From: an uncultured Pseudomonadota bacterium
GTDB lineage: Bacteria; Pseudomonadota; Alphaproteobacteria; Rs-D84
Assembly (NCBI GenBank): GCA_902790415.1
Contig: CADARU010000001.1
Coordinates: 50,071 to 114,070 of the forward strand
Reading direction: 5' to 3'
DNA length: 64,000 nucleotides
Numbering within the stretch: position 1 is the stretch's first letter; every line of letters starts with the position of its first letter. The notes below the pieces were generated by a model. It did no database searches and was not told the origin of the DNA. It saw nothing but the letters and a program-made list of their open reading frames with translations. Positions 61,924-62,030 of this stretch are shown here, piece by piece. The position numbers were made by a program, and so were the translations under genes.

Positions 61924-62030
61924 TAAAGGAACCTTTTTGTAAATGTAATTATTCGTAAATTACGGTTTAAAAAATCCTGTAATTTCAATGGTTGAAAAAT
62001 TGCATATCACACGATCAAAAAGGTTCCTTT
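61924..62030. repeat. 107-bp element bounded by perfect 15-bp inverted repeats (AAAGGAACCTTTTTG / CAAAAAGGTTCCTTT)
   Basis: 61924-61938 is the exact reverse complement of 62016-62030, with a 77-bp AT-rich spacer containing an inner GTAATT...AATTAC palindrome. The right arm abuts the extended -10 at 62032-62040. Confidence 0.6.

Follow-up and report, generated by a model that had tools for sequence, protein, structure and literature searches.

The window analysed here is a 64-kb stretch of DNA (contig CADARU010000001.1) from an uncultured rumen alphaproteobacterium of the Rs-D84 lineage with a reduced genome, and our subject is a promoter-linked inverted repeat within it, referred to below as element 1, together with the small gene that follows. 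Element 1 sits in a 247-bp intergenic region between a macB-type gene and an open reading frame (ORF) of 145 aa. This ORF (62090..62527, plus strand), which we call the cargo gene, encodes a small all-helical protein of a rare unnamed family with the motif ILNM..L..GG..TEYGLY. Upstream, a macA / ABC ATPase / macB-type operon ends at 61842 with the macB-type permease gene (60625-61842) and is followed by two terminator hairpins. The first is the intrinsic terminator of the permease gene (61841..61864, plus strand), a 10-pair stem followed by a T run, while the second (61875..61901) is a bidirectional terminator-like hairpin with 11-nt perfect arms (AAAAAAGCCGG/CCGGCTTTTTT) flanked by an A tract and a T tract, which shields the element from upstream transcription. 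Downstream, a predicted bidirectional terminator (62559..62593) is common to the cargo ORF and a convergent TPR gene (62588-63961, minus strand).

The inverted repeat and its two 26-bp sites

The left arm of the perfect 15-nt inverted repeat, AAAGGAACCTTTTTG, occupies 61925-61939 and its exact reverse complement 62016-62030, giving an element of 106 bp with 76 bp separating the arms. A first-pass annotation had described a 107-bp element with perfect 15-bp terminal inverted repeats; the repeat is indeed perfect and its right arm lies where it had been placed, and the recomputed coordinates move the left arm by 1 nt (from 61924-61938). Also borne out are the extended -10 TGATATAAT at 62032-62040, one nucleotide past the right arm, and the mini-palindrome AAAGG-NN-CCTTT, present in both arms with AA as the NN of the left and TT as that of the right. 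The inner palindrome that had been reported between them amounts to a weak, imperfect repeat (17 nt, 76%) and has no role in our interpretation. The repeat itself lengthens to 19 nt with one mismatch, and a repeat finder extends it to 22 nt at 91% identity. The entire window contains three perfect inverted repeats that reach 12 nt or more across a spacer no longer than 200 nt, namely a terminator-like hairpin, a stem bracketing the 5S rRNA gene and the promoter-linked repeat studied here, and a repeat of at least 15 nt was present in 2 of 100 dinucleotide shuffles. The 15-nt repeat is non-random.

One explanation for such a repeat is a structure-forming element, either a leader RNA hairpin or a DNA cruciform. 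The predicted RNA fold of 61915-62100 has an energy of -34.2 kcal/mol (z = -3.3), a score that restates the inverted repeat, and the ribosome-binding site has, in CAAAAAGGAA, a complement to TTCCTTTTTG (62024-33). However, two terminators precede the arms and the only good -10 follows them, so that they are probably untranscribed, and in L095, a related contig described below, the promoter lies between the arms. Searches of Rfam gave no family at gathering score, the best E value being about 0.01 and all such hits falling on terminators. We consider the probability of this explanation negligible.

The arms can instead be extended into two 26-bp sites. S1, distal to the promoter (61918..61943), reads ATTTCATAAAGG-AA-CCTTTTTGTAAA with a predicted crossover at AA 61930-61931, and S2, proximal to it (62012..62037), reads CGATCAAAAAGG-TT-CCTTTTTGATAT with a predicted crossover at TT 62024-62025; S2 covers the -35 position and the promoter spacer and contains a perfect 10+2+10 palindrome (62014-62035). 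Both have a 12-2-12 layout in which two inverted 12-bp half-sites surround a 2-bp core. Because one strand reads AA at the centre of S1 and TT at the centre of S2, the asymmetric cores are inverted and the sites are inverted partners, as inversion requires. The AT-rich 92-bp segment between the two dinucleotides (61932..62023) would be inverted by an exchange between S1 and S2.

This architecture is that of the hix, gix, cix and pix sites (used by Hin of Salmonella, Gin of Mu, Cin of P1 and Pin of e14, respectively), which are 26 bp long with two 12-bp half-sites and a 2-bp core. S1 shares the central AA found in all hix, cix and pix sites (Table 3, PMC3241671), and as in those systems the partners are inverted. 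For comparison, hixL is TTCTTGAAAACC AA GGTTTTTGATAA and gixL is TTCCTGTAAACC GA GGTTTTGGATAA (Table 3, PMC3241671). The half-sites ATATCAAAAAGG and CGATCAAAAAGG are similar to the half-site of hix, TTATCAAAAACC, to which ATCAAAAA is a match, although the window has GG/CC next to the core and natural Din sites CC/GG. The inner 12 bp of the two sites, AAAGGAACCTTT and AAAGGTTCCTTT, fit the Gin core rule AAASSWWSSTTT, a pattern that is present at least twice in 9% of shuffled windows and that has been described as the inner gix core important for Gin-beta activity (PMC5175349). In the mechanism that we propose, a recombinase dimer would bind the two half-sites of each site (consensus ~nnaTCAAAAAsG) and would cut at the central 2 bp. 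The locus differs from the Din systems in having neither an adjacent invertase gene nor an identifiable Fis-type enhancer, in placing one site inside a promoter spacer, and in its cargo, which is a whole small gene and not a flagellin promoter or tail-fibre gene halves.

A recombinant junction at S1 and related site pairs in the clade

Closely related contigs were obtained by cluster look-ups for the product of the cargo ORF. An ENA scaffold of 155 kb that is 99.8% identical to the window (L097/L101) has the same arrangement with the element in the same orientation. On L101 a second, paralogous cassette lies 5.3 kb away on the opposite strand, between parB and pal/ompA. The two sites of this element 2 are S3 on the pal side (GGACAAAAACG-AA-CGTTTTTGTCG) and S4 (GGTCAAAAACG-TT-CCTTTTTGATAT), 86 bp apart centre to centre, and S4 is followed by the same TATAAT and 5' untranslated region (UTR) as in element 1 and then by a 148-aa paralogue of the cargo protein. 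The 92-bp segment of element 1 is paralogous to the corresponding segment of element 2.

Two separate Logan assemblies (L098 and L099), 98.2% identical to the window, carry a recombinant form of S1. Their agreement with the window is 45/45 positions on the right of the central AA and only 15/45 on its left, where they instead match the pal-side flank and outer half of S3, as found in L101, at 44/45. The junction thus consists of the S3 outer half, AA and the S1 inner half, with the break exactly at the central dinucleotide, and is what an exchange between S1 and S3, a 5.3-kb inversion, would be expected to produce. The sequence shared at the junction is only ~4 nt, about G-AA-C, and therefore neither homologous recombination nor a k-mer misjoin accounts for it. 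The reciprocal S1xS3 junction (ATTTCATAAAGG-AA-CGTTTTTGTCG) was not found in the assemblies. Strand exchange at the central dinucleotide is accordingly seen for S1xS3 and not for S1xS2; long-range inversions between different elements would, in our proposal, be side reactions of the same enzyme, as in Bacteroides fragilis.

Element 2 also bears on the suggestion that element 1 is a MITE-like miniature transposable element (miniature inverted-repeat transposable element) inserted in a promoter. Terminal inverted repeats that bracket short AT-rich non-coding DNA fit such an element. However, no choice of ends gives a target-site duplication, there is no significant flanking duplication of the whole insert, no further copy of the 15-mer or of the motif AAAGGNNCCTTT is present in the 64-kb window, and the 15-mer is absent from 1.44 Mb of related DNA (80 related loci/genomes). 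The only other copy in the species is the paralogous regulatory region on a paralogous gene, and is not dispersed. A transposable element is therefore highly improbable, and the search for copies and target-site duplications proposed in the first-pass annotation came out negative. That annotation had also taken a single-copy element that is not conserved in relatives retaining the gene as a sign against function; every strain in which the gene is retained has the element unchanged or almost unchanged, and analogous pairs stand at homologues in other species, which favours function. Its general view, that the repeat is functional, that the arms are small palindromes of the kind bound by dimers and that the right arm is tied to the promoter, is supported. 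Among its three readings, two protein-binding sites came nearest, the MITE and the cruciform fall away, and invertase crossover sites had not been considered.

A scan with the site pattern of all fetched DNA (1.6 Mb) revealed inverted site pairs and no pairs in direct orientation. Inverted pairs 85–130 bp apart occur in L007, L016, L095 and L112-L120, besides element 2 of L101. The pairs precede cargo homologues and surface-protein genes in Candidatus Enterousia relatives. L007 has AAACC-AA-GGTTT with a partner 109 bp away; in L016 the sites, whose core AAAGG-AA-CGTTT is not palindromic, are 85 bp apart and are inverted copies of each other over 20 nt without a mismatch; L095 has the core AAACC-GA-GGTTT, 130 bp apart, the pair enclosing TTGCAT-17-TATAAT upstream of a homologue of the cargo ORF; and L022 has a weaker pair 105 bp apart. 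L007 and L112 thus have a core identical to that of hix, and L095 one identical to that of gix. The core varies among elements (CC/GG, GG/CC and CG/CG) and the inverted-pair relation is constant, the same inverted asymmetric cores being found in L007, L016, L095, L112 and element 2 of L101.

In the species represented by L112, which carries a homologue of the cargo protein (P0021), two convergent paralogues each follow a pair of hix-core sites 107 bp apart. Here an enzyme gene adjoins the sites: in L112, L116, L117 and L118 the outer site is ~100 bp away from a gene for a 202-aa protein with a Resolvase domain. Its product scores 254.8 bits on the NCBIfam model NF009949 ('master DNA invertase Mpi family'), below the curated cut-off of 272, and among its solved relatives the 'DNA-invertase' chains 4m6f and 3uj3 are best (E 5e-7, versus 1e-5 for gamma-delta resolvase). 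Among the 120 best matches, relatives 72–100% identical are abundant in gut alphaproteobacterial metagenome-assembled genomes (MAGs). The two-gene block of this species, set between fixed flanks (the invertase gene and the threonyl-tRNA synthetase gene, ThrRS), is seen in both orientations, one way in three contigs (L112, L116 and L118) and the other way in five (L113, L114, L115, L117 and L119); its flanking repeats are ~230 bp long and homologous recombination may be an alternative there.

Together, these observations argue for the arms being the cores of two hix/gix-like crossover sites for a serine DNA invertase of the Hin/Gin/Mpi type, within a multi-site system, a reading to which we assign a probability of roughly 75%. 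Its support comes from the architecture of the sites, the recombinant at S1, the recurrence of such pairs in the clade, the neighbouring enzyme gene, the logic of the promoter, the non-random repeat with its conservation wherever the gene is kept and, independently, the viral contig L089 described below. A close parallel is Mpi (FinA) of B. fragilis, likewise a small serine recombinase that acts in trans on many short, promoter-linked, hix-like repeats; Mpi inverts 13 regions (PMC4747536), and the title of Patrick et al. 2003, as cited in PMC3090145, describes the B. fragilis repeats as similar to hin repeats. The system described here differs from it in its host, which belongs to a different phylum (Alphaproteobacteria, with genomes of ~0.9 Mb), in that the -10 lies outside the segment and only the -35 would be swapped, and in a cargo that is a cytoplasmic-looking helical protein and not a polysaccharide locus. 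The Mpi repeat consensus is ARACGTWCGT, to which AAACG-TA-CGTTT (L022) and AAACG-AA-CGTTT (S3) look similar, and the invertible segments of B. fragilis are about twice the size of the segment here. As in the multiple-inversion systems (Min of p15B, the R64 shufflon and the long-range inversions of B. fragilis), more than two compatible sites exist and alternative pairs recombine, examples being the 5.3-kb S1xS3 inversion and the L112-species block; unlike in those systems, no gene segments are shuffled, the genes keep their promoter and start, and the long inversions look functionally neutral.

A pair of operators for an ordinary dimeric transcription factor, engaged in DNA looping like lac O1/O3 and involving no recombination, would account for part of the same evidence, since each site is near-palindromic, S2 lies between the -35 position and the -10, and the 94-bp spacing is close to 9 x 10.5 (~nine helical turns). 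The spacings elsewhere (85, 86, 105, 107, 109 and 130 bp) are, however, out of helical phase, the L016 sites are non-palindromic and yet form a perfect inverted pair, and asymmetric central dinucleotides are inverted in every pair. The breakpoint of a strain-level rearrangement coincides exactly with the S1 centre, and the sites match invertase sites and in L112 adjoin an invertase gene. What resembles a classical operator pair for a transcription factor does exist in the related contigs: the palindrome ATTTCATATGAAAT occurs twice, separated by ~44-60 bp, at ~13.4-14.4 kb in L003, L007, L015, L016, L020, L021 and L022. This pair is kept in sequence at one orthologous intergenic position across species, unlike the sites considered here, whose core sequence differs between elements. 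We regard the operator explanation as very unlikely.

Several further observations touch on recombinases and sites in the fetched contigs. An Enterousia MAG (L055:290-2831) encodes an Mpi-like serine recombinase of 200 aa (54% identity to the enzyme of L112) beside a 562-aa integrase-like ORF, which suggests a mobile element. The viral contig L089, retrieved solely because it contains CAAAAAGGnnCCTTTTTG, has this motif 97 bp away from a Resolvase+HTH_7 gene; the gene (L089:13608-14303) encodes 193 aa, the palindrome TGTTCAAAAAGG-AT-CCTTTTTGGACA lies 97 bp upstream of it, and a second repeat, TCCAAAAA-N14-TTTTTGGA, lies between palindrome and gene, these being likely the recombinase's own site or operator. 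Of the nine viral contigs matching CAAAAAGGnnCCTTTTTG, those other than L089 showed neither extended similarity to S2 nor a recombinase match. Finally, the contigs L095 and L096 (compared at L095:1-50 and L096:1-60) code for one and the same protein, P0016, and do not differ downstream of 'gaaaaaagaaaattag'; on the upstream side, L095 has its left gix-like site, whereas L096 lacks this arm and has the 3' end of an unrelated ORF, and the break does not fall at the centre of a site.

Promoter architecture and the proposed 92-bp flip

The extended -10 TGaTATAAT (62032..62040, plus strand) is kept in the strains and in element 2, and reads TGtTATAAT in L112. The 5' UTR that follows (62041..62089, plus strand), with the Shine-Dalgarno sequence AAGGA at 62078-62082, is conserved between elements 1 and 2. 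At present the -35 position (62012-62017) is CGATCA, which matches TTGACA at 2/6 positions. On the minus strand the outer part of the S1 inner half contains the -35-like TTTACA (61938..61943), which in the present orientation lacks a -10 partner, pointing to a stretch without a usable -10. Inversion of 61932-62023 in silico brings TTTACA (5/6) to a position 17 bp upstream of the -10, giving TTTACA-17-TGaTATAAT, with predicted junctions ...TTTCATAAAGGAACCTTTTTGATCGTGTGATATGC... and ...AATTACATTTACAAAAAGGTTCCTTTTTGATATAATCC.... The site itself is part of the promoter: the S2 outer half runs into the first bases of TATAAT and ends there, the 17-bp spacer is made up of the S2 body, and the -35 position coincides with the six outermost bases of the inner half. 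Of the promoter elements, the segment thus contains the -35 position alone, with the -10 beyond its edge; in L095 the whole promoter is inside.

An exchange between S1 and S2 would thus invert the 92-bp segment and trade CGATCA for TTTACA at the ideal 17-bp spacing. The present orientation would be low or OFF and the flipped one ON, and the outcome would be phase-variable expression of the small helical protein downstream. The same operation would change GGGTCA to TCGACA in element 2 and TCGTAA to TTGAAT in the L112 pairs. As assembled, TTGACT-18-TACACT straddles the proximal site in L007, upstream of a surface-protein-like gene, and TTGATT-18-TACATT does so in L022, where the surface-protein-like product has a signal peptide. 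We infer, as plausible but unproven and at slightly less than even odds, that S1 and S2 recombine with each other and flip the 92 bp with a swap of the -35. More tentative again is the full proposal of a split-promoter mini-inverton, in which the site serves as spacer, the -10 is fixed, the -35 is swapped, and a trans-acting Mpi-like invertase phase-varies a helical-protein family and surface proteins in host-dependent gut alphaproteobacteria with genomes of <1 Mb.

A number of observations weigh against invertase sites or against this use of them. The S1xS2 flip is seen in 0 of ~24 assemblies: element 1 is oriented alike in the window, L097/L101, L098, L099 and, in part, L001, and orientation is uniform for element 2 in eight complete contigs and for L112-type pairs in about 11. 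Neither the 64-kb window nor the 20 kb around the orthologous locus of L101 contains an invertase gene, and an enzyme for these sites would therefore act in trans, encoded elsewhere in the ~0.9-Mb genome. In the large inversions that are observed, each gene moves together with its promoter, and a regulatory consequence is not obvious. The 94 bp between crossover points would need a very tight loop, compared with ~1 kb from hix to hix and 1–4 kb for Din sites more generally, and is also much shorter than the Mpi regions of ~170-230 bp. The bases flanking the core are GG/CC in the window, as opposed to CC/GG in natural Din sites. The hix-type half-site (TTATCA...) is itself -35-like, so that the '-35 swap' is partly built into the site consensus, and, as the segment now stands, the extended -10 may already allow appreciable expression. 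Consensus assemblies mask minority orientations, however, and rare flipped molecules would escape them; at least one invertible promoter of B. fragilis, the Tsr19-driven large-capsule promoter, has likewise been found OFF only in genome sequences (PMC3090145). Loops of ~100 bp assisted by HU are documented for Hin (PMC3798978). Contig ends were considered as a possible sign of flipping and rejected, L107 and L110 stopping at a strain single-nucleotide polymorphism and L121 at a k=31 collapse of a long inverted repeat.

The absence of the small flip from the assemblies would also be explained by a composite locus of the res kind, in which S1 is a crossover site and S2 an accessory subsite, the two synapsing only with S3 and S4 and inverting the block between, while recombinase bound at S2 represses the cargo promoter. 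The sole exchange seen, S1xS3, joins the two distal sites; the sites form two pairs flanking convergent paralogues in both the window's species and the L112 species, where the whole block occurs in both orientations beside the invertase gene; and S2, over the promoter spacer, has the classical position of a repressor. The res and six sites (Tn3/gamma-delta, Sin and beta) similarly bring together several sites for recombinase dimers in ~90-120 bp, with one site overlapping a promoter, and by analogy recombinase at the promoter-overlapping site may also repress here. However, resolvase accessory subsites have an altered half-site spacing and so remain uncut, whereas S1 and S2 share the 12-2-12 geometry, the same core dinucleotide in inverted orientation and 15–20 nt of perfect identity. 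Both subsites therefore have identical crossover geometry with inverted asymmetric cores, unlike those of res and six, and the products are inversions. L007, L016 and L022 show a single pair within the DNA available, and a large inversion that carries the gene with its own promoter brings no obvious change in expression. The enzyme is nearer to invertases than to resolvases by both the NF009949 profile and its solved relatives, and the described job of the Mpi family is to flip short promoter segments at many loci. A res-like locus is thus unlikely, although it is better supported than the operator pair.

Site-specific inversion of the Hin/Gin/Mpi type is textbook biology, and as far as could be found an inversion system is undescribed in the uncultured Rs-D84/Enterousia lineage. 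Retention of an invertase together with several site pairs by genomes of this size suggests, by analogy with mycoplasmas, that variable expression is important for life in the gut. A switch with 94 bp between crossovers, if true, would be about the smallest natural invertible switch described; it would set a lower size limit for serine-invertase loops and offer a very compact recombinase-addressable promoter part. A recombinase site that doubles as promoter spacer, with ~90 bp flipping, would be an unusually economical architecture. It would link a regulatory phenotype to a rare helical family, for which the convergent pairs provide a handle on function. Such sites also yield real large inversions between strains (5.3 kb), which matters for MAG assembly and for synteny comparison.

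The cargo family and the macB/TPR junction

The cargo family is rare, with 19 representatives among 1.84 billion cluster representatives in an exhaustive HMMER search, which together with look-ups of cluster members supplied the relatives used here; they share a conserved domain of ~115 aa (ILNM..L..GG..TEYGLY). The window's protein, to which P0034 (NCBI/ENA) is identical, has no match in Pfam or NCBIfam. Its AlphaFold model is all-helical and confident (pLDDT 82.5) and has no significant match in the PDB, and peptide-pattern scans for relatives in genome, metagenome and viral contigs gave nothing. Relative to the 99.8%-identical L097/L101, where the protein has 156 aa, a 10-bp deletion near 62440 frameshifts the last 28 codons (62436-62550) in the window; the ancestral frame is still open to 62550, and the deletion is either a recent inactivating change or an assembly error. 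Genes of the family occur as convergent paralogue pairs. For two members, P0017 and P0003 (L092:5810-6003 and L091:5812-6003, also L093 and L094), there are no site pairs and a conserved structured 5' leader of ~190 nt directly follows a TATAAT. RNAalifold on two sequences gives 46 pairs, five with compensatory changes, and Rfam has no match for this leader, possibly a new cis-regulatory RNA.

Relatives of the MacB protein that are 79–89% identical belong to uncultured gut and rumen alphaproteobacteria named Candidatus Enterousia and place the window in this group, and genomes of the order Rs-D84 are mostly <1 Mb (about 0.75–1 Mb; PMC12306168). The convergent macB/TPR junction (window 61842-62588, compared with L002-L026) is a variable spot. 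In the closest related species with macB and TPR convergent, the gap is 8–90 bp with one shared terminator in some and holds gpsA in others, and the element and cargo ORF are found at this junction only in the window's species; they are therefore a lineage-specific insert. The idea that the insert is bounded by a duplicated target (terminator and TPR 3' end) was rejected, the local alignment being no better than that of shuffles (p = 0.23).

Elsewhere in the window, the perfect 15-nt inverted repeat at 14274-14288 / 14393-14407 brackets the 5S rRNA gene (14283-14397) and is presumably a processing stem of the rRNA operon (14283-19227, minus strand). In related contigs, GC-rich hairpin repeats with the pattern gtcattgcgg...ccgcaatgac are found repeatedly between genes and in 5' regions, although the genomes are AT-rich (L007:19150-19270, L091:5520-5730 and L016:400-560) and resemble repetitive extragenic palindromes (REP).

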